Of a stretch of DNA of 64,000 bases, positions 8,332 through 25,262 are shown piece after piece. The notes beneath the pieces were generated by a model. The model was not told the DNA's origin and ran no database searches. It saw only the letters and a program-made list of their open reading frames with translations. The stretch is from a virus, in the IMG/VR virus record IMGVR_UViG_3300033143_004212, positions 19,405-83,404 of that record; one strand, given 5' to 3'. Position numbers and translations under genes: made by a program. Position 1 is the first letter of the stretch; each line of letters opens with the position of its first letter.

Positions 8332-8940
8332 ATGGCTAAAAAAGATATTTTACCAACTACTTTATGTAAGGTTATTAGTATAACACCTGGATTGAATGGA
8401 TTAACTGCTCCATCTTTTCATTATCATATCGTTTTTAAACGTCCTGGACAAGTAATGCGAGTTAGATTTGAGATTTTACAAGATGCACTCCATGCTGATG
8501 ATTCTTATATGTTAAATCACTGTTTAAGAGTTATGGATGGAGATGTGCGAAGAGAACTTGGATTAAATGATGATATCGAGTATAGTTTAAGTTTAGCAGA
8601 TGTAGAAAAAATTATTTTATCAGGAACGCTTGAAGAATTAAGAGATTTATTCACTTATGGACCAGAAGGATATGCAAGATTAGCGGCAGATTTAGCTGTT
8701 AGAAAAGGTATGGATAGTACTGCTAAACTTGAATTAATTCAAGAATATAGTGGAATAAATGTTATTTTCCAAATTAAAGAAGGAATAGGACTTGATGAAA
8801 TAGAGGCAGAAGTAGAAAGAAAAACTGAAAGAAGTTATGATACAGTTAAAAAAGATGAACCAGAGGAAGTAGATGAGATTGAAGAAGAAGATAATAAAGA
8901 AGCTGCTTTACCTAAGTACACTAGAGTAGATAAGAAATAA
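8332..8940 (+). CDS. Hypothetical head-module protein
   Basis: 202 aa ORF with AGGAGG SD. Confidence 0.6.
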   Translation: MAKKDILPTTLCKVISITPGLNGLTAPSFHYHIVFKRPGQVMRVRFEILQDALHADDSYMLNHCLRVMDGDVRRELGLNDDIEYSLSLADVEKIILSGTLEELRDLFTYGPEGYARLAADLAVRKGMDSTAKLELIQEYSGINVIFQIKEGIGLDEIEAEVERKTERSYDTVKKDEPEEVDEIEEEDNKEAALPKYTRVDKK

Positions 8941-11471: not shown

Positions 11472-13117
11472 TGGGAAGTTTATTTCATAGAGATAAATAT
11501 AATAGAGTTTATAGTTTAATGAGTAAGTATGAAGAAGTAAAAGCTTGATACAGTTATGTAGGTGCTTATGCAAATCATGGATATGATGGAACTAATCCAT
11601 TATATGTTTCTATTTTTTCTTATATAGATGATGGGAATAAAGAAAGATCAACTAATATTAGAGGAACTAGTGCTAGACAATATTATATTTATAATCAAGG
11701 ATTATCTTTAGCAGATATAAATATTCCCAAAAGCAGTAAAGAAAAAGTAACATCAGCTTCTCAATTTAAAACTATGCTTGATTCAGAAGTTGATAAATAT
11801 TTATCTAAAGTAGCAGGTAAATATAAAGGTATGCCTGATGCGGTAGCTCATAAAATTTTAGAAAGAAGAGTAAAAGAACATCAAAAAGATTTAGGTATAC
11901 ATCCAGTAGGTTCAAATGAAGAATTTAATAGAAGATTCATTAAAGCAGTTTTTAGAAATGCTGAAATCGGTCCTCAAAGAGAGATGCATGATGAAATTAA
12001 AAAAGCTTTTAAAGGATTACAAACTTTTATTAATAAGAATATAGAGCAAGGTGCCGCAGAAATAAAAGCAAAAAATGATATTGGTTCTGGAAAAAAAAAT
12101 TATTATGTTTTAGAAATAAAAAATGGTGTAACAAGATTAGAAAGAGAATATTATAAATTATTAAAAAAATTAGCGATTACTATTTCAAAAGCTTCTGAAG
12201 AGGGTGCGTTAGATGCTGGAGCAGAAGCTAAAATAATTACATTATTAAATTCATTGAAAAGTAAAGTACTTGCTTATGAGAAGAAAGCAAATCGCAAACC
12301 TGTTAAAGGAACTACAATTCGTTATATTAATTCTAATGGAGTAAAAATGGATTTAAAAGATTTAACGGTAGGGAAAGATAAAGATCGTAAATTACATTTA
12401 ATAAATTTGGTTTCAAGTATTTTAGGTAATGCGGCAGGTCTTGGTTATGAAATTTCTATTTTGGCGGCGGCATCAGCCTTGATGGATAGAGGTCAAAAAG
12501 ATATAGAAAAATTTAGAGACGTTTCGCATGCTGAAATGAAAGGTAGGATACTTGATTTATTAACAAAAGACTCTCGAACTTTTAAATCAAAAAAAGGAGC
12601 AAAAAAATTCTCAGGAGCGGTTACTGGAGATTTAGTTATAGATGGAGTAACTTCAAAAGCAGACGTAATGTTTAAAATAGAAGACATAGTAAAAGGAACT
12701 CATCAAGAATTTAAAATTTCTGCTAAAAATTATAAGAGTTCTAATTTTAAGCTTCATACTGGAAAAGTACAAAATTTTGCATCAGCTATCGCCGCGAAAG
12801 GGAGAGAAAAAGAAGCTTATATTACACGTTCAATGTTTGATACTATCTCTTGGTATCCTGCTTATTTTAATACTGATGGTAGCGGTAATTATAAAGGGGA
12901 TACTCAAAACAATTCTGTATTTAATGTTTTTAGAACAATGCTATTATTGAATTTAGATTATTTTTATGGGTTTGATATAACTCATTTATTTTCTTCAAGG
13001 GATCAAAATCCTACAGCAATAGCAGATGCAATAATGAAAAGTACTATTAAAAGGATTCAAATTAATGGAGATTCAATTAGTTTAACAGTGAAAGCGGTGA
13101 AGAAGGATGTACAATAG
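11471..13117 (+). CDS. 548 aa basic protein with a possible PD-(D/E)xK nuclease motif, TGA at 11546
   Basis: ATG 11471 overlaps the previous TAA and is in frame with the 11774 ORF through one TGA. C-terminal half has GYE...SKADV...ISAKNY. Confidence 0.6.
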
Positions 13118-13967
13118 ATTAAAATTATTTGGAGCAAGACCTGTTTTTGATAAAGATTTAAAAGTTTATTTATACCCTTTAACACTTAGTTATATAATTG
13201 ATACTTTTGATGAAGAAACTTTATTTTTATTCCCTATGAATATTATTGCAATGGATGAATATGATTTAAAAACACAAGCTAATGAAATAATGGATAGATC
13301 AAGAAGAACTGCTAAACCAATTCGTAATCTTACTTTAACAAGATATGAAATCATTATGATTTATATTATGAATGGGATATCAAGTAATAAACCTGAATTA
13401 TTTGTAGATATGATTAATGGGTTTTTAAGAATATTTGAAGGAATTTTTAAATCAGAATTTGATTTTAATATGAAACTTTTTCAATTTTATTCTAAAGAAC
13501 AGATTACGATTGAAAAAATAACATATGAAGAAGATAAAATGGGCAAAATAGTTAAAAAGTATGTAAAAGATTTTTTAATTATAAATGAGAATAACTTTGA
13601 ACAAATTTGCGATTCAATAAAAGAAGTAAGTGGTTGGAATATGGGTGCTAATGAAAATAAGCCTGTCTACAATCCGGCAAGTGAGAAGGCAAAGCGAATA
13701 GCTGAAAAATTAGAGATGTCTAGAAAAAAGATACAAGCAATTAAAGCTAAATCATCAGACGAAGTAACACTAACAGACTTAATTTCTGCTTATTGTACAC
13801 AGACAAAAATCAATCCGAATGAAGTAGTCGGCACTTATACTTTATTCCAGTTTTTCTTACAAAGTGCGAGAGAATCCCTATTCTTAGAATACAATACGAG
13901 TATTCAAGCTATGCTTCATGGGGCTTCCGAAGTTAAATTAAAAAATTGGAGCAAAAAAATAAATTAA
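13107..13967 (+). CDS. Tail-module protein (possible assembly chaperone)
   Basis: 286 aa with INENNFE, YNPA.EKAKRIAEKL, YTLFQF and GA..VKL.NW. Precedes the tail tube gene. Confidence 0.55.
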   Translation: MYNRLKLFGARPVFDKDLKVYLYPLTLSYIIDTFDEETLFLFPMNIIAMDEYDLKTQANEIMDRSRRTAKPIRNLTLTRYEIIMIYIMNGISSNKPELFVDMINGFLRIFEGIFKSEFDFNMKLFQFYSKEQITIEKITYEEDKMGKIVKKYVKDFLIINENNFEQICDSIKEVSGWNMGANENKPVYNPASEKAKRIAEKLEMSRKKIQAIKAKSSDEVTLTDLISAYCTQTKINPNEVVGTYTLFQFFLQSARESLFLEYNTSIQAMLHGASEVKLKNWSKKIN

Positions 13968-13980
13968 GGAGGAACAATCC

Positions 13981-14805
13981 ATGAAATTTGGTATTAGAGA
14001 AGTTGCAAACGTAACTTTTAGAACTTTATCATCTATAGTTATTGGTGGTCAAACTTTCGGTATCGGCGAGCCTGTTCTTTATTTTGACTCTTTAAAAGCT
14101 TCTACTTTAGCAGGAAATGCTAATACGGTATTTGCTATGGGTGGAAGAGGAAATAATAAACTTTTAGGTTGGGACGGAGACAAGGAAATAACATTCACTA
14201 TCGAAGACGCTCTTATTTCTCAAGAATCTTTCGCTATCCTTTCAGGTGCGGACTTAGTATCATATGACGGTTCAGCTACAAAAGCTAAACTTCATAAAAG
14301 AGAAATTTTACAATTAGACTCTTCAGAAGAAGTTACAGTTTCACAAATTATTCTTGAAGATAATGCGGATTTCCCAGTTTTTATGTATCTAAGTAATGCA
14401 GATGAAGAAATTCTTGATCTAATTATCGATCCTGTTATAAATGTAGACGGAGTTACAGTTGAATTTACTACAGTAACAGTACCTTCATTAGCAGAAGATG
14501 ACTGGGTTATAGTTGATTACTACTACGAAAGTCTTAAAGTTGTTAAATCTCTTGTTGTTAAAAATGATTCATTCGGTGGATATTACAAAGTCGAAGGAGA
14601 TTCTTTATGGAGAAGAGAAAAAGATGGTGTTGATTTAGCAGCATACTTAACAATTCCTAGAGCAAAAATTAGAACTAACTTTGAATTCTCAATGACACCA
14701 GATGGAGATCCATCTACATTCACATTCGAATTAGATGCTTTCCCTACTAGTATTAGTGGTGTTGGAACTAACGTTCTATTCACAATGGATATTGAAGAAG
14801 ACTAG
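13981..14805 (+). CDS. Major tail (tube) protein
   Basis: MKFGIREVANV, A.GGRGN..L.GWDGDKEITFTIEDAL and DGDPSTFTF, with highly expressed codon usage and a following terminator. Confidence 0.8.
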   Translation: MKFGIREVANVTFRTLSSIVIGGQTFGIGEPVLYFDSLKASTLAGNANTVFAMGGRGNNKLLGWDGDKEITFTIEDALISQESFAILSGADLVSYDGSATKAKLHKREILQLDSSEEVTVSQIILEDNADFPVFMYLSNADEEILDLIIDPVINVDGVTVEFTTVTVPSLAEDDWVIVDYYYESLKVVKSLVVKNDSFGGYYKVEGDSLWRREKDGVDLAAYLTIPRAKIRTNFEFSMTPDGDPSTFTFELDAFPTSISGVGTNVLFTMDIEED

Positions 14806-14822
14806 TATTAAAAATTAAATAT

Positions 14823-14846
14823 TTGGAGAGATTAATTTCTCTCCAA
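14823..14846 (+). terminator. Hairpin after the tail tube gene
   Basis: TTGGAGAG-ATTAATTT-CTCTCCAA. Confidence 0.6.
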
Positions 14847-14877
14847 TAATTTACTTTAGAGAAGAAAGGATGAATAA

Positions 14878-15156
14878 ATGAAGATAACGTTTAAGGATAT
14901 TATTTGTCAAAGTTTAAGAAATAACCATATACAAAGAATTTTAAATGATTTTGGTATTATTACGCATGATAGAGATCCTCATGATATAATAGAAGATGTT
15001 GCGGTTGTTTGAAAAATTTTAAAGAAAGAAGAACAAGGAATTGCTATAAAGTATTATTTAGCACAAGCATTAGTAGGAATTAGACATAAATATAAATTTG
15101 TATTATTAATGGATATGTATACAAGAGAAAACAAGGAGGAACAAAATGAATATTAA
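14878..15156 (+). CDS. 92 aa protein resembling a segment of the tape-measure core, TGA at 15010
   Basis: SD AAAGGA before ATG 14878. Reads RDPHDIIEDVAVV[W]KIL...KYYLAQALVGIRHKYKFVLLMDMYTR to TAA 15156. Absent from the ORF track. Confidence 0.75.
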
Positions 15157-15703
15157 AAGAATAAAAGAACTTTCTAAAATTGAAAATAACATCAAAATGA
15201 TTAAAGTAGGAAATGAATTTATTAATGTAATTAAATATTTACCATCTGAAAAGAAAATGCTTTTCGTATATGATGTATTAGGCAGAAGTATTATATCAGG
15301 TAGAGTTAATCCTGTAGCAGTTGATATTTCAGTTTATGTAAATATTGTAATGAATTATTCTGATGTAGAAATAAATTTGGGAGAAGATAACATTTTTGAA
15401 GCATATGATATATTAGTACAAACTGGTATGCTAGATAAAATATTAGAAGCAATTCCTAAAGCAGAAATTGATTTAATGTTTGAGTATGTTAAAGATGCGA
15501 TTGAAACTGAATTAGCATATTTACATTCTGCAAGTGCAGCAATCTCTGATATTGCAAAAACTATAGCAGATAGTGCTATTGGAATGTTAAAGGAAAATCC
15601 TGAAATGTTAAATGTAAATGAAGTATTGTCAGAATCAAGAGAAGGTGTGGGAATACCAGCACCAGTAGAAAAAGAAAAAGAAATAGTATCGTTAGTTGAA
15701 TAA
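15146..15703 (+). CDS. Tail assembly chaperone-like protein
   Basis: 185 aa immediately before the tape measure gene, with AGGAGG SD. Confidence 0.5.
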   Translation: MNIKRIKELSKIENNIKMIKVGNEFINVIKYLPSEKKMLFVYDVLGRSIISGRVNPVAVDISVYVNIVMNYSDVEINLGEDNIFEAYDILVQTGMLDKILEAIPKAEIDLMFEYVKDAIETELAYLHSASAAISDIAKTIADSAIGMLKENPEMLNVNEVLSESREGVGIPAPVEKEKEIVSLVE

Positions 15704-15729
15704 TCCGTTAATTCGGATTATTTTTTTTT
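15701..15729 (+). terminator. Intrinsic terminator
   Basis: TAATCCG-TTAATT-CGGATTA followed by T9. Confidence 0.7.
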
Positions 15730-15741
15730 GCTCTAAATGGA

Positions 15742-15758
15742 TGGGCAATATTATTTAA
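15742..15758 (+). promoter_or_regulatory. Candidate late promoter/operator motif, copy 1
   Basis: TGGGCA-ATA-TTATTTAA, repeated at 32091. Confidence 0.4.
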
Positions 15759-15821
15759 ATATCCTAATAGATTTTTGATTTTTATATAGGAATACAATAG
15801 ATTTTAAAAGGAGGAATTATA

Positions 15822-18800
15822 ATGGCTGATTTTAGATATACCTATGAATTAGCAATGGCAAAGGTCTCTAAAAAACAATCATTGAAGGAATTAGAACAAT
15901 TTTCGGATGCAGTAAGAAAAATTTCACCAGAAATCTCTCCTTTTAGTCAAAAGGATTTAAAAAGACTAGATAGAGATTTAAGAAAGGCTAAAGCTACAAT
16001 TAGCGATACTTTCTCTGGACAACAATATGTTCAATTTGATGAAATGAATAAATCTTTAAAGAAAGCCGGAGTTAATCTACAAGATGTCAATGCGAAGATA
16101 GTCGCAATTAAAAAAGCAGGCAATGCAGTTACTGGAATTACTGGCAAATATCAACAACTAAGCCAACAAATGTCTAAGACTGCAGTGATTCAAGCAAGAA
16201 TGAATAAATTTGCGGCAACTTTTGTGAAATTAGTAAATTTCAAAGTTTCAATTGCGGCATATCAATTTGTCACACAACAATTAAGAGAAGCATTAGAATA
16301 CACAAAAGAACTAGATAAGACATTAACTGAAATTGCAACAGTTTCAGGTTTTTCTAGAGATCAATTAGAAAAATTTGCGATATCATTCAATAAAATGGCT
16401 TATGAAATGGGTCGTACTACGAATGAAATGGCTCAAGCTTCAGTAATCTTCTTTAGACAAGGTAAAGAGACTGCAGAAGTTATGCATTTAGTTGAAGCTA
16501 CAACTATTGCGGCATCTATTGCGCAAACAGAAATGGCTCAAACGTCAGAATACTTAACAGCTACATTAAATGGTTTTAAATTAGAAGCTACGGATGCAAT
16601 GTCTGTAGTAGATAAATTCTCTGCTATTGCTGCTAATGCCGGTACATCATTTGAAGAACTAGCTATTGGTTTAACAAAAGTTGCATCAGGAGCATCTAAT
16701 GCGGGAATAGACCTTGACCATATGTCATCTTATATTGCTACAGTTTCTGAAGCAACTAGAGAGACTGCAACAAATGTTGGTACATCTTTCAAAACTATTA
16801 TCGCTCGTATGAGAGGTATTACATCAGAAGGACATGAATCAGCAGATAGCTTAAATAGAGTAGACAAAGCTTTACAAGGATTAAGTATTTCTCTTAGAGA
16901 TGATGAAGGTCAATTAAGAGACTTACAAGATGTAATTGCTGAATTAGGAGCAAAATGGCAAGGATTAGACGTAAATACTAAGTCTTATATCGCGACAGTA
17001 ATTGCCGGTACTAGACAACAAAATAGATTCATTGCATTAATGGATAACTATGACAGAAGTTTAGAAATTTTAGAAACTTCTCTTAATAGTGCAGGCGCGG
17101 CTCAAGCACAATTTGGACAATATACAGAAGGTATCGAATATTCAATTAATCAATTAAGAGCTTCTGTAGAAGAGTTATGGCCTACATTACTATCTGGAGA
17201 TGCAGTAAAATTCTTAGTTAAAGGGTTAACTGGATTAGTTAAAATGTTAACTTATGTTTCTAAGAATATAGATCATATAGCATTAGTTATGATAGTCTTT
17301 AATAAAGCAATTTCTAAAATGGTTATGAGTGCGCATTTAGGTGCGACTGAAATGTCAACACTTAGTCAATCATTAGTTGTTCATGGAGGACATGTTAAAA
17401 GATTAACTACAACTTATAGAGTACTTGCAAAACAAAGACAAAAAATGAAAACAGATAAATTTGCTGAAACATTCTTATCTAGTAGCGACTGGGAAAGATA
17501 TTCAACAGGAGTATCTAAAGCAGCAGAAGCTTATAAAGCAATTTCTGCTCCTATAAAAGATATGACTAGCCAAATGGAAATTTACAAAATTAGTGTAAAT
17601 GAAGCAACATTAGCAGTAGAAGAGTTTGGTAGAAAATGGAGTAAAAGTTCAAGAAGAGGAACTAAAGCCGATTTATTCGCAGTAGAAAGAAAAGGCGAAT
17701 TTGAAGGACAAAGAGGACTAGATCCAAAAACTTTAAAAATTGAAAATCAAGAACTTTATAATATAAGACTTAAAGCTATGCATTTGAATGAAAAAGATAC
17801 AATTTTATATGAACAACAATTAGCATCAGCGAGAACTCAAGTAGGATTAAAGCAAGAAGCTTTAACAGCACAACAAGCGATGAACCCATTACTTACAAGT
17901 GCTAGAACAGAACAAGAATTAATGAAAAAAGCAGTCCAAGAGGAAGTTGCTTATAGAAAACAACAAGAAATATTAATAAATAAAGCTAGAAAACAACAAT
18001 TATTAATGAAATCAGCATTAATGCTTTCATTAGTAGTAGTATCTTCTCTTTCTGATGCTATTAAAAATGCAGATGGAAGTATAGAAGATACGAGAGATAG
18101 AATATTAAAACTTACTAACTCTATTGGTAGCATGTTACTTTTATTAGGTCCACCTATTGGCAAAGCTATTGGTGCGGCTATAATGGTTGGAAGTGCTTTA
18201 ATCCAAAAATTATGGAAAACTAATAAAGAAAAATTAGAAGAATTTAGAAATAGTATTAAAGCAGTAAGTGACGAAATAAAAGTATTAGGAGAAATGGGAG
18301 ATGCTTATGAAGAGTTAAGAAAGAAAGCCGCCGCAGGTGGTATTAGTTTCTTATCTGGAGAAGAGCAAGAACGACTATATGATTATATGCTAAGATTATC
18401 AGAATTAGAAGATATTGAAATAGTAGATTACTCTCCTGATGGAAAACCTATTATAGATATGACTAAATCAGTTGAAGAATTAATTGCGGCTAGAAGAGAA
18501 TTACTTCAAATAGATAAAGAAGGAATAAATAGTGCTTCTGAATTTAAGAAAAAATGGGAAGAAGCAAGCGATGTAGAAATGATTCAAATGGAGCATCTAT
18601 GGGAATCTCCTGCAGGTGATAACATTGTAGAAGAATTATCTAAGCAAGCAGTTCAAGCAATAAAACTTGAAAAACAATATGAACTTTTAATGGAAAAATT
18701 TACTTTCTTACTCAATGAAACTGCGGAATTTAAAGGCTCTTTCTTAGAGAATTTCGTAAAATATTTTGATACTGGAGAAATTGGACCAGAATTATTAACT

Positions 18801-21549
18801 AATGTTGAAGAAATATATAATACAATTCAAACTGCTTTTGCAAAAAAAGCAAGAGAAGGATTAATTTCTAAGGATGAAGCAAATGAAATTATTAATGCTA
18901 CAATGGGAATAAAAATATATTGAATTAGCAAAAGAAACTAATACTGTAAATGCTTCAACAACAGCATTAATGCAAACTTATAAAGATTTACAAGATGCTA
19001 CTTCAGATTTACGTAGCGCAAGACAAACTTTAGCAGAAGATGAAGAATTAGAAATTGGACAAGTTTTAGAATTAATAGATTCTCATAGTTCATTAATTAA
19101 ATATCTAGATTTAGAAGCTAAAAATTATGGTATTACTGCAAGAGCATTAGCAGAAGCATCTCAAGTTTTAGTACAAACTAGAATTAATGATAATTTAGCA
19201 ATTATTGCAGGTATTGATGCAGAGATAGCGGATCAAAAAGTTAAACTTTCTCAAATAACTATTGTTTATAATTTAGCAATAGCAATAAAATGGCTTAGTA
19301 GAGCCAGACTTGATTCAATAAAAGCTAATCTTTACGAAACTCAAGCAAGTATAAGAGGTCTTAAAGAACAAAGAAGTAATGTTTTGAAATTAAATACATT
19401 ACTTGAGAATTATACTATAAAAACAGAGAAAGCATCTAGTGCAACTCAAGCATTTACTTATAGTTTAAAAAAATCTGCATTAGAATTTAAAAATATGAAT
19501 GAATTAGTTGAAGAGTCTAATACAGTTGTTTCACAATTACGTGATACAATTAAAGCTTTAGAAAAAGATATGACAGATGCTGATTTAAGTACTATTGCTA
19601 CTTTAGCAGAACATATTAAAGCTTATGATGAAATAAAAGGTGCATTGCTTGGTCAAGCTAGTTTACAAGAAAGTTTAAAACAAGAAGCATTAACAGGATT
19701 AACTCAAATCCTTGCAGGTCTTGATAAAAACATTATTGGAATTAATATTAACGATATTATTATAGACGGAAGAGTCGATAATACTAAATTTAATAATTTA
19801 GCTAATTTTTTAAAAGAAGAAGTTAATAGACTAAATGCGATAATGAATAGAGGAAAAGGAACTAAAGAATTACAAGAACAACTTAAACTTTATCATACTC
19901 TTTATAGTGAAGTTGAAAGCTATAAAGATGCTATAGAAAAAGCTGATTTAGCAATATACAAAACAAATCAAACTCTTACAAAAACTATAGAAGATCAACA
20001 AGCATTCTATGAAAAATTAGTAATTTCTCAACTTGAATACATCCAAGATATATTAGTTGAAAAATATGAAGCCGCTCTTGAATTGATCAAAGAAGGAAAT
20101 GAAGCATCTGTTGAAGCGATAGAAAAAGAAAAAGATGCATGGGAAAAATTATTAGAACAACAAAGAGAAAGATTAAAAATAGATAAAGATTTAAGAGACT
20201 CTGAGAGAGAAAGAAGAGATATCTTAATAGAAATTGGAGACAAACAAGCGCTACTTAATAAATTAGCTCTAGATGAATCACAATTTGCTAAAAAAAGAAA
20301 GAAACAATTAACTGAAGGTATAACTAAAAATAGAGAAAAATTAACAGATATTGAATATGATAGAAGTTATGAAAGTAAATTAGGTTCTTTAGAAAGTTTA
20401 AATAAAATTAGACAAGAAGAATTTATAACAAGATTAACAGAATTAGAACAAAGTTTAGCTTTTGAAGAAGCTCGTTATGAAGTTCTTTTAACTCAACGTA
20501 ATATTGAAAAATCTGCTGAAGCTTTACTATTGGCCAAAGGAACTATTATTAGTTTTACTGGAGAAGTAATGACTTTAGATAGTTTAGTTCAAGAATTTGG
20601 AGAAACACTTTCTAAAACTGGAACTAGAGAACAATTAGAAGGTTTTAATAAGTTTAATGAAGAAATAGTAGCTATAAATGATTTATTAAATGAAATGGGA
20701 GTAGTTTATGAGGATGTAGTAATTGATTGGAGCCAAATTAAAACAGCTAATTTAGCAGATTTTGAAGCCGATCTTATAGGTGCGGCTGAAAAAGTTGGAT
20801 TATCATTTTCAGATTCACTTCTTGAACAATTTAAATTAGGGACTATTAAACTAACAACGCAATTTGGAACTGCAGCGACAGAAATGGAAACAGCAGTTGG
20901 TGAATATGCTAATAGTATATTAAAGATTTATAAATCAATGTTAAATGATATGGTATTTGGAGCAAAAGAAACAGGGAAAAATATTGGAGCTGCTTTGGAA
21001 GATGGAACTGCAGAAGAAATGGATATTGCAGAAGCTGTCTTTGGTAGAGAAGGAGAAGGTAAGGGACTATTAGATGAAGCTTATTGGGAAGGACGAAATA
21101 TTGATTTTGCTGTTATTCAAGGTATTAAAGATTCTCGTAAGAAAGGCGGTACTTCTACATGGGTTATTACTCCTGGAAGCGATGAAAACGATTCTGCTCC
21201 TACTGGTGATGGTGTATGAAGACCTCCAAGAGATTTAGGTATAGTTGGTTATCATAATGGTGGAATGGTTAATTTTGATGGAATAGCGGCTGTACATGGT
21301 GAATCTAGCCCTGAATGGATATTTAATTCTAACCAATTAGAATCTGTTATTAAAATGACTAATGCAAGTATGTTAGGAACTTTATCTAAATTAAACATAC
21401 CATTAGGTGGGACTGGAGTAACGATTGAAAATCTAATTAAGATTGAAGGAAATGCAACAGAAAACACAATAATAGAATTAAAAAAATTAGCTAAACAAAT
21501 CGCACCAATAGTGGGAAAACAATTAGTTAAACAAATTAAAAAGGTATAG
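15822..21549 (+). CDS. Tape measure protein (TP901-like core), about 1908 aa if a +1 frameshift near 18911-18915 is bypassed; TGA at 21217
   Basis: Core GTSFKTIIARM...IAGTRQQNRFIALMDNY, long helical coiled coils, and a C-terminal YHNGG...AAVHG..SPEWIFN reached through TGA 21217. The 15822 and 18970 ORFs differ by +1 frame. Confidence 0.85.
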
Positions 21550-21599
21550 GAGAAGGTTTACCTTCTCTTTATCTTTATTTGAGAAGAAAGGATAATATA

Positions 21600-22409
21600 A
21601 TGTTTACAGCAACAGATTTTACTTATAATGGTAGATTAGCAAGTGAATTTGGATTAACAGTTGTTAACGTTGGAACAATTAGTTCTACTCAATCATTTGG
21701 ATTAAATAGACAAATATTAGAAACCCAAAGATTAAGTGGAATAAATTCTTTTCATGGCTTTAGCTATGAACCAATAGAATTTCAAGTGACGTTAGCGAGA
21801 GAGTGTGAATGAGATTACTATACTAGAATAGAAGTTGCTAGATGGTTATTTCAAAATAATTATAAAGAATTAATTAATCCTGATCATCCAGAAATAATAT
21901 ATAATGTATTATTTTTTGGAGATAATCCAATAGGATTAGTTGGAAATATTCCACGCTATATTACATTAAATGTAAGAGCGGATGCCCCTTGGGGTTGGTC
22001 AGAAGAATATACTTATGAATACGATTGTGACACTGTTTTAGTAGTAGAATTAGAAAATTTATCTAATTTAAATATGCCAATTTACCCAGAAATAGAAATT
22101 GTTTTAACAACAGGAGAAACGTTATCAATCGATTTTGATACAGATAAAGAATGAAAATTTGTTGATGCAACTTACAGTGGAGATGACTATAATTTAGTAT
22201 CAGGAGAAACTATTTATGTAGATAATAATAAAAAAATAATAATTTCAGATCAAACAGGTTCTGAGGATGCGCGAATAAAAAATTTTATTAAAAGCGACGC
22301 AACAAAAGAAAGAAGTGATTGGTTCTATTTAACAGAAGGAACAAATACATTCACTTTAAATGGGAATGGAGATTTTTCTATAAGAATTAAATTCCCAATG
22401 GTAGCATAG
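21600..22409 (+). CDS. Distal tail protein (Dit)-like, 269 aa, 2 TGA (21810, 22152)
   Basis: FTYNGRLASEFGL N-terminus, ARWLF, DAPWGWS, IYPEIEI and WFYLTEGTN. Open to TAG 22409 with TGA=Trp. Confidence 0.8.
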
Positions 22410-22427
22410 AGAGAAAGGAGTGAAAAG

Positions 22428-25262
22428 ATGTTAGGAGATATAAATTACCTACTTGGACCTATTGAGTACGTTTTAGAAGTAACGAAACCAAATAAAGAAC
22501 CAATAGTTGCGATCTCCAATGATTATGGAAAGGTATACTCACCTTCTATGAAAGCTATTAATGAATTTAGTTTTATGATTAATAAATTTTATGAAGATGG
22601 CAGTATAAATGCATCTTATGAAGCAGTACAAGAAAAATATTTAATAAGTTTAAATCAACAAGAGTATTTCGTAATTACTGAAATTGAAGAAGATGAAATA
22701 GAAGGTATTAAAGCAGTTATATGTTATTCTCTTGAATACGAACTTGGACAAAAATTTGTACAAGCATATGAAGTTGTTTCCGCAAAATTATATAGTAATA
22801 ATTCAGATTTTGATGGTGTTATGAATATGGTAAACAGTTTGGCTCCCTCTTGGACAGTAGGTACGATAGATGGAGAAATTCTTGAATCTTATAGATCATT
22901 TGATGTGAGTAACGTAGATATTTATACTTTTATTACAAAAGATATTAGTGAAGCTTTTGGTTGTATCGCTCTTTTTAATACAGATGAAAAAACAATAAGC
23001 TTTAAATTTTTAGAACATATAGGAGTAAACAACTCATTATTCTTATCAAGCGATAATTTAATTAAAACTTTAACGAGAACTAGAAAATTAGAAAATATAG
23101 CAACAAGAGTTTATGGTTTTGGTTCAGAAGATTTAACAATGAATACTGTTAATCCTAATGGATTAAGTTATATAGATAATTTTTCATATTTCAAGAATAG
23201 AAATTGGATGTCTCAACGATTAATAGATGCATTAGACGCACATGATGCGATTGTAACTGCAAATATTCCAGAATTCCAAACAGTTCTTTCTGATTATCAA
23301 GATGAATATGAAGATAAATTTGGTTCATCTATTTATAAAACTTTATTAGTAACAGATATTTCAGGAGCAAACATTACTTTTGATGATAACGCATCTGATG
23401 TAGATAATTATTACAATGGTTGGAAATTATTAATTGAATTACCAACTTCTGAGAATCAAAATTGTGCAGGTCAAACTGCAACGATTTTATCATATAACGG
23501 AACAACAAAAATTGCAACACTAAGTTCTGCTTTTTCAGAGGTAAATCATACTTATGAAACTGTAGAAGTTACAGTAAAAACAATCCCTGCTAATCCAGAG
23601 GGAGAAGAAATATATGCAGAAGGTAGCTATTACATTTCTGAGAATATTGGTAATTATCAATATTTACAATTATCTTTAGTTAAACAAGGTAATTGGGAAG
23701 AAATTGAAAAAGCTTTAGTTGCTAGACATGCATCAATAACGCCAACACAAGATGATTTAGATGAACTAGCTGAAGCTAGAACTCATTTAGATTATTGGAA
23801 TGGTCAAGTAGGAGTATGGCAAACTTTAGTAGATGCAAATGATGTAGTACTTGATGCAAAAACAACTAGATTAGAAGAACTTAATGTAATTATGGATATA
23901 GAAACTAATTTAACTTTTGATGAATTGCAAGAATTAGATCCATATATTATTGAAACTACTTATACAAATTCTAATATTATAGATGAAGTAGATTTATATG
24001 ATGAAGTTGTAGAAATTTCTGATAGAGTTGGGTATCCTAGATATGAATTTTCATTAGATGCAGACGATCTTTTAAAAATGGTTGAATATCAACATATTAG
24101 ACATAGATTAAAAATTGCAGATATAATAAATATTAAAATATCTGAAACAGAAGAAATTGAAGTTAGAATAACTGGATATTCTCATGAATACGATGAGAAT
24201 ATAATAAATATAAGTTTTTCATCTGTAAATTCTATTTTTGATTCAAGTTATGAATTAGCAGAGTTATTGAAGAACAATACTAGTGCAGCATCATCATTAA
24301 ACGTAGAACGTTTTAAATTTAAAACTTATGTAAAAGAAGACCAAAATACAATTTTAACTTTCTTAGATAGTGCTTTAGATGCGGCTAAAAATGCGGTTAT
24401 AGCAGGAAATAATCAAGAAGTATTGATAGATAGAACAGGTATTACATTACGAGAATATGATGCAATAACTGGTGGTTTTACAGATTCACAAATGAGATTA
24501 ATTAATAATACAATTGCAATAACAGATAATAATTGGAATACAGTTAAAACCGCAATAAGTCCTGACGGAGTATTTGCCGATGTATTAATTGGTAGAGCAA
24601 TCCTTGGTGCCGAACTTCAAATTGAAGCGGCAGATGGAACTTTTGAGGTTGATGAAACTGGTACAACTCTTAAAAATATGTCGTTAACAGCGGTTAAAGA
24701 TGAAGGATTAGGAACAGAAAGAAAAATAGTATTAAATGATACAGATGTGTTTAGAGTTTCTATTGGTGGAGTAGATAAATTATGGATAGATGTCTCTGGA
24801 GACATGAATATAGCAGGTAATATATTTATGAGTGCAAGTTCTAGAATTACTTGGACGAATGTCACAGATGCAGATTCTGAAGCAGTATCAGCATGGGACG
24901 ATAATTATATGACTACTATTGGTCCTGATTATGTTTTTACTGGAAAAATTCAAGCCAATAAAATCACAGGTAATACTTTGACAGCATTAGATGAAATAAA
25001 TATAGGAGATGTATCTATGAGTACTAATGGTATATTAAGAATGCATTCTGCGGGTACTTGGTGGATAGGAATGCAAACTTATGAATCACCGGGACCATCT
25101 TGAGAAATCGGATATCTTAGTTCTATAACAGATACGACAATATCTGAACTTAATAGAATTATGTTAGCAGCTAACATGGTGTATACAAGTAGTAATTTAT
25201 CAGTACTTGGGAATCTTTCAGTAAGCGGAACTGTAACAGGTGTTACTGCAGTATTTGGATAA
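22428..25262 (+). CDS. Tail tip / Tal-like (prophage endopeptidase-tail type) protein, 944 aa, TGA at 25101
   Basis: Follows Dit. Contains TRVYGFG..DL....VNPNG..YIDNFSYF and TDNNW.TVKTAI. Readthrough ends ...GVTAVFG then TAA. Confidence 0.75.

Follow-up and report, generated by a model that had tools for sequence, protein, structure and literature searches.

A stand-alone homologue of the conserved tape measure core encoded upstream of the tape measure gene in an uncultured phage

Known tail systems and the layout of the locus

Tape measure proteins (TMPs) are long, single-copy length rulers. To our knowledge, no case has been described in which the most conserved sub-domain of a TMP stands alone as a separate protein, and we know of no description of a class of structural-protein-derived mimics. 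The 92-aa product (P0001) of the small open reading frame described here, the mini-ORF, is homologous to the last ~93 residues of the core of TP901-family TMPs (TIGR01760; PF10145, PhageMin_Tail), with which it shares the same five helices and the invariant tryptophan and glycine. Unlike TP901 TMPs, which are 600–3000 aa in length, it is devoid of the length-determining helical region, is encoded upstream of a chaperone-like gene and matches no curated model. The domain belongs to a known family and occurs here in a new, stand-alone form.

In size and position, the mini-ORF recalls the G/GT chaperones of lambda-like phages: it is small, lies between the tube and tape measure genes and would be made with the tail genes, and a role in handling the TMP is conceivable by analogy. 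In contrast to G/GT, it copies the client protein rather than a chaperone and is not part of a frameshift pair; against chaperone families it gave no Pfam or PHROG match and no PDB fold match. A second parallel is found in large Firmicutes siphophages (phiCD211 and Perkons), where the gene content upstream of the TMP gene also varies between relatives. The slots of phiCD211 and Perkons hold kilobases of regulators and integrases with their own signals, whereas the slot described here is ~270 nt long, precedes a chaperone-like gene and is without a promoter of its own. The third parallel is a trigger of immunity. SeAvs18 is reported to bind a central helical TMP segment of ~130 residues, the most conserved part of the TMP, and the bound segment to be both necessary and sufficient for cell death (preprint 10.64898/2026.01.04.697583). 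This trigger segment and the TMP counterpart of the mini-ORF are both described as the most conserved helical stretch of the TMP, a likeness of description only.

The window analyzed is a stretch of 64,000 nucleotides (bases 19405–83404) of the 83.4-kb IMG/VR record IMGVR_UViG_3300033143_004212, which comes from an uncultured phage, has a completeness rating of 56% and a G+C content of 30%. Its nearest relative, L003 (also L013; JRFF01000053.1), is a 127.8-kb contig binned with Candidatus Izimaplasma HR2, and orthologues in the two phages are 49–71% identical. All window features given here are on the + strand. The region begins with a tube-like (major tail-like) structural gene (13981–14805), which matches the virion structural protein family phrog_2729 (E = 5.7e-55), has a weak match to major tail protein and is 71% identical to its L003 orthologue. 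A terminator-like hairpin 3' of this gene (14823–14846; 9-bp stem followed by a T-rich tail) forms the upstream edge of a variable slot. The L003 counterpart of the hairpin (8836–8859) differs by a compensatory change in both arms (GAGAGA/TCTCTC versus GAGTGA/TCACTC). The 13 bases 3' of the hairpin are identical in the two phages, and beyond them the sequences diverge completely. L003 retains both the hairpin and the chaperone-like gene, with an unrelated ORF of 72–87 codons between them. This L003 ORF (8841–9104) has a strong AGGAGG, yet none of ATG, GTG and TTG is suitably spaced from it, and ATA or ATT may serve as the start codon; its product begins with NIKELKKF, a stretch similar to the beginning of the chaperone-like gene.

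In the window, the slot is occupied by the mini-ORF (14878–15156, translated with table 4). A Shine-Dalgarno-like GAAAGGA, read from the sequence, lies 7 nt 5' of its ATG (14864–14870). No promoter-like site was found in the ~30 nt between the hairpin and the ATG, which offer no space for one, and an Rfam search of 12000–23000 returned nothing. The 3' end of the mini-ORF contains an AAGGAGG (15133–15139) that serves as the Shine-Dalgarno site of a 185-aa gene (15146–15703). This gene is 52% identical to its L003 orthologue and is tail-assembly-chaperone-like by position only; searches of Pfam, PHROG and NCBIfam gave no curated family match. The mini-ORF stop (15154–15156) lies beyond the ATG of the 185-aa gene at 15146, an overlap of 11 nt that suggests translational coupling. 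A second terminator-like hairpin (15698–15723; 10-bp stem, then a T run) closes the pair, and the tape measure gene follows (first reading frame 15822–18941, 1039 aa; PF10145, E = 3.5e-27; TIGR01760, E = 3.2e-31; phrog_4211, E = 3.6e-57).

Two overlapping ORFs between the tube and TMP genes, the downstream one in the +1 frame, are what would be expected of a G/GT-type chaperone pair in which the mini-ORF supplied G and a programmed +1 shift joined it to the 185-aa ORF. However, the 185-aa ORF has a strong AAGGAGG and an ATG of its own, and L003 preserves its N-terminus despite having an unrelated ORF upstream. Moreover, no more than 12 open codons precede the ATG in the +1 frame, and no slippery site was seen in the sequence. 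A frameshift fusion is scarcely credible and was rejected on the strength of the separate start signals, the conserved N-terminus and the lack of an extension frame.

Homology to the tape measure core and the in-frame TGA

A preliminary description of this DNA had proposed that the mini-ORF encodes a stand-alone homologue of the TMP core, and five lines of comparison agree with it: BLASTP, shuffling, a profile, the wider set of TMPs and a MAFFT alignment. BLASTP aligned residues 16–83 of P0001 with TMP residues 345–412 (21/73 identical, 35.4 bits, E = 2e-7). The Smith-Waterman score of the pair was 82, compared with a shuffle mean of 33.8 (sd 4.7, maximum 59; Gumbel p ~1e-6), and this score was reached by 0/5000 shuffles of the mini-ORF and 0/2000 shuffles of the TMP. 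A profile of 62 TMP modules scored P0001 at 26.1 bits (E = 3e-6), the best of 10,000 shuffles scoring 12.4 bits; among the other ORF fragments of the 83-kb genome (the TMP itself aside), none scored above ~5 bits. The mini-ORF was matched at the same module by ~40 of the 62 collected TMP homologues, with 22–36% identity. Pairwise and profile alignments alike are significant against shuffled sequences. The positions given in the preliminary description proved exact for the tryptophan codons and for the TMP segment: R366–R412 corresponds to 16917–17057, and W379 is the TGG at 16956–16958.

The MAFFT alignment extends the homology over the whole ORF, placing residues 1–83 on TMP residues 320–412 (16779–17057), the segment that holds most invariant columns of the TMP core alignment. 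The mini-ORF is a stand-alone paralogue of this conserved C-terminal sub-domain of the core, and its N-terminal MKITFKDII is aligned to the TMP motif GTSFKTII. Relative to the TMPs, it has a deletion of ~17 residues and an insertion of 5. It keeps the invariant tryptophan, the invariant glycine and the arginine of the AGTRQQ motif. Other TMP-invariant residues are replaced, namely R329 (by Q) and Q399, and the TRQQ motif reads IRHK; the loss of the R329 and TRQQ signature residues, together with the deletion and the insertion, sets the mini-ORF apart from TP901 TMPs. No Pfam model matched it at E ≤ 1 and no NCBIfam model at E ≤ 10, whereas the window TMP is scored at 96 and 108.6 bits by the same curated models (PF10145 and TIGR01760, respectively). 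With 92 aa, as against 575–1947 aa in the TMP homologues, it also falls short of the long, length-setting protein that defines a TP901-type TMP.

P0001 is truly homologous to the TMP core, and this homology is secure. Both sequences are helical and AT-biased, and the missing Pfam and NCBIfam matches might suggest a similarity due to chance or to shared composition. This explanation is effectively refuted by the shuffles and by the TMP module profile; the matches to multiple targets and the invariant W and G columns also speak against it.

The reading of the mini-ORF hinges on its only TGA (15010–15012; W45 of P0001), at which a table 11 translation stops after 44 codons. The alignment confirms the earlier proposal that this TGA faces the TMP TGG at 16956. 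The codon falls on the invariant tryptophan of 22 TMP sequences and of P0003, a stand-alone relative considered below, and the column is W in 24/24 aligned rows. The half of the mini-ORF that follows the TGA carries most of the signal: by itself it scores 16.3 bits with the TMP profile, against a shuffle maximum of 9.2. Because most of the signal lies 3' of the TGA, the frame must run on past it. Elsewhere in the genome, comparison with L003 shows TGA facing TGG in at least 6 columns of four genes, and facing Phe in two more. The invariant W column and these TGA/TGG columns together uphold the claim, made in the preliminary description, of internal support for TGA = Trp.

Release factor 2 scores above the curated cut-off in both metagenome-assembled genomes (MAGs) that hold relatives of this phage, Candidatus Izimaplasma HR2 (L013, JRFF01000053.1) and a Bacilli MAG (L014, JAEDGC010000001.1). 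If the binning is right, the hosts therefore stop at TGA and it is the phage that is recoded; this looks like a TGA-recoded phage of standard-code hosts. No tRNA was found on the 83-kb record. Within this genome, the mini-ORF is a clear-cut instance of TGA = Trp, and the likely hosts of the phage retain release factor 2.

Coding character, distribution and kin of the mini-ORF

A short homologue in such a position could be a non-functional remnant, that is, a piece of a foreign, unsampled TMP left behind by illegitimate recombination and open by chance or recency. We regard this as a fairly unlikely but serious possibility, and the frame itself argues against it in several ways. An open frame of 92 codons has a probability of ~0.003 at the local base composition. 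The in-frame codon log-odds (0.35/0.57 per codon) are positive on both sides of the TGA, so that a coding signature is present in both halves, and the other five frames are negative or near zero. The ORF begins and ends where the five-helix unit does, with an ATG and a Shine-Dalgarno site of its own. GC3 is 0.15, like that of this phage's genes, and is typical of a gene in either half. The codon score nonetheless stands at about the 5th percentile of true in-frame windows, which would suit a remnant, as would the loss of TMP-invariant residues described above.

An AF2 model of P0001 is compact and has five helices (pLDDT 84, pTM 0.71); it was run on a 24-row alignment and leans on the TMP-based alignment, so it is not independent of the latter. 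The helices map one to one onto those of the TMP core model at TMP residues 316–421. The best BFVD matches to the P0001 model are tape measure or minor tail proteins, with TM-scores of 0.6–0.69. One BFVD entry, A0A8S5PX45 (111 aa, 'Minor tail protein', Siphoviridae sp. ct2vX3), matches the model over its full length (TM-scores 0.65 and 0.56), and may be either another free-standing copy or part of a TMP that was truncated because the wrong genetic code was applied. PDB fold searches with the mini-ORF and the TMP core gave nothing above background, and the ESM Atlas gave scores below 0.9 and no lead. Judged by its sequence features, the mini-ORF looks like a working accessory gene.

The mini-ORF is absent from L003 and from four further relatives, with none in L005, L009, L014 or the shorter loci. 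A six-frame profile search of six cultured phages with this TMP type, covering 8 kb on either side of the module, found no second copy. Among 399 scored genomes of the class to which the relative-holding MAG belongs, no mini-ORF was found, the weak matches being to the tail of P0003 or to a long TMP-like frame. In searches of 50,697 deposited phages, tblastn with P0001 gave only a chance-level match and blastn with 13000–19000 gave none. IMG/VR scans with P0001, P0003, an alignment of the two and an alignment of the chaperone-like protein returned no relatives. A word-indexed protein search with P0001 retrieved only itself, and a search for shorter proteins with the TMP module as query retrieved nothing. 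In 130 deposited module-bearing phages, the module was found at one place each, by a test that would miss a copy as diverged as P0001.

Since the mini-ORF is absent from relatives, it is not needed for tail assembly in this lineage, and its distribution marks it as a lineage accessory rather than as core tail machinery. Like a moron-type gene, it is present or absent at a fixed site between close relatives (L003 has the same flanks and another ORF); the promoter and terminator of its own that such a gene would carry were not found. Variability of this kind is also compatible with a remnant. The slot holds an unrelated ORF in the nearest relative, and in related large siphophages the stretches 5' of the TMP gene are places where DNA is exchanged. 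Furthermore, the TMP modules of different phages are only 24–46% identical to each other, so a fresh fragment of an unknown TMP would also look ~30% identical.

A phmmer/HMMER search of 1.84 billion representative proteins identified a sole relative besides the query. This protein, P0003, is a 151-aa singleton encoded on an 1866-bp contig of a Logan assembly, and it scores 20.8 bits with the TMP module profile. P0001 and P0003 are 36% identical over 58 ungapped residues (48.9 bits) and are closer to each other than either is to any TMP. The 5-residue insertion is common to both and occurs in none of 22 TMP sequences; in both, the module also breaks off at an identical position and is followed at once by an acidic tail. 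The recurrence of the insertion, the truncation point and the acidic tail in a protein from another source argues against a remnant. Conservation of the ORF, to which the preliminary description had tied its proposal, thus holds in part: none of the available relatives of this phage has the ORF, and a single distant stand-alone homologue occurs elsewhere.

In a tree of the module (58 columns), P0001 and P0003 are sisters with a bootstrap of 99; both are on long branches, and long-branch attraction could inflate the grouping. On sequence comparison, the two look like a lineage separate from the TMPs, and the long branches would fit relaxed constraint as well as new function. P0003 is without the first two helices and has ~85 extra C-terminal residues that form an unrelated extension. 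Pfam and PHROG scans of P0003 and of the slot ORF of L003 gave nothing significant. P0001 is 29% identical to the TMP of its own genome and 36% identical to the best other TMP. As its own TMP is no closer than others, the mini-ORF is an old and diverged copy, and its origin by recent duplication of the resident TMP was rejected.

Possible roles of the mini-ORF and features of related tape measure genes

We favor the reading that the mini-ORF is a genuine small gene, specific to this lineage and of ancient origin in a sub-domain of a TP901-type TMP core, and that its product mimics that TMP segment; our confidence in it is evenly balanced. The ancestral piece would have been the five-helix unit equivalent to TMP residues 320–412, placed in the variable slot between the conserved terminator of the tube gene and the chaperone-like gene. 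The mini-ORF would probably be transcribed by read-through with the late tail genes. Its full-length product would require TGA to be read as tryptophan and, given the overlap of stop and start, would probably be translated together with the 185-aa chaperone-like protein. We infer that the product would be made late and at a modest level, and that it would be a soluble protein that mimics the TMP segment and occupies the site to which this segment normally binds. It could hold or tune the chaperone-like protein before the TMP is made from the next transcription unit. Because the two genes would be co-produced, the chaperone-like neighbor would be the likeliest partner, and we favor it in a mechanism that is wholly conjectural. 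The proposal that phages can detach this sub-domain as a soluble small protein, to serve as a decoy that leaves an Avs18-type sensor inactive or as a client mimic that tunes the chaperone, strikes us as unlikely in that form.

The preliminary description had put forward three candidate functions, namely chaperone regulator, superinfection exclusion factor and decoy. An anti-defense role would have the mini-ORF copy the TMP segment seen by Avs18-type sensors and bind the sensor without allowing its assembly. The preprint on SeAvs18 supplies a concrete candidate partner, and the mini-ORF corresponds to 93 residues in the best conserved part of this TMP family. The protein would be made together with the late tail proteins, and some invariant residues are missing from it, which would suit a mimic that does not activate. 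However, a copy of the trigger would be expected to activate the sensor rather than to block it, and the gene is absent from relatives. The segment copied by the mini-ORF and the segment bound by SeAvs18 are likened by description, the preprint text giving no coordinates. We consider a decoy quite unlikely. As an immune sensor is reported to recognize such a TMP segment, the idea is directly testable by co-expression.

A further point against a decoy is that we know of no structural protein that has given rise to an inhibitor. The TMP is the target of some accessory proteins, such as HK97 gp15 and TP-J34 Ltp, and the slot resembles a moron site; both would suit a superinfection exclusion factor, which would mimic the TMP of incoming phages at the membrane and so block them. 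Such a role is very improbable for P0001. No signal peptide or membrane helix was seen in it, and the model is that of a soluble five-helix bundle. There is no promoter space between the hairpin and the ORF, and the in-frame TGA ties full-length translation to a recoded, late state.

If the mini-ORF is functional, it marks the conserved TMP sub-domain as an interaction unit in its own right and offers a handle on what the conserved core binds, whether a host sensor, the chaperone or the TMP itself. Should it prove to be a remnant only, it would still record that pieces of TMP genes have moved by recombination through the slot that precedes the chaperone gene.

Three further observations concern the tape measure genes of this phage and of its distant relatives. 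In the window, the TMP is broken across two frames (18900–18972), and the resulting products of 1039 aa and 859 aa correspond to the N- and C-terminal halves of the L003 TMP. The second reading frame (18970–21549) matches the C-terminal half of the single 1947-aa TMP of L003 over 840 aligned residues, with 49% identity. The break lies at an A5 run, immediately 5' of TGA and TAA, and may reflect programmed +1 frameshifting, a true mutation or a fault in the assembly. In Psychrobacillus phage Perkons (L015, 4507–7108), an integrase gene, a ribbon-helix-helix gene and small ORFs are found directly upstream of the tape measure gene, a further example of the variable slot in this phage group. In Clostridium phage phiCD211 (L017, 5791–8001), the deposited annotation has a group I intron splitting the tape measure gene; in the second exon the profile match picks up again at model position 34, which puts the intron within the conserved module that is copied by the mini-ORF.
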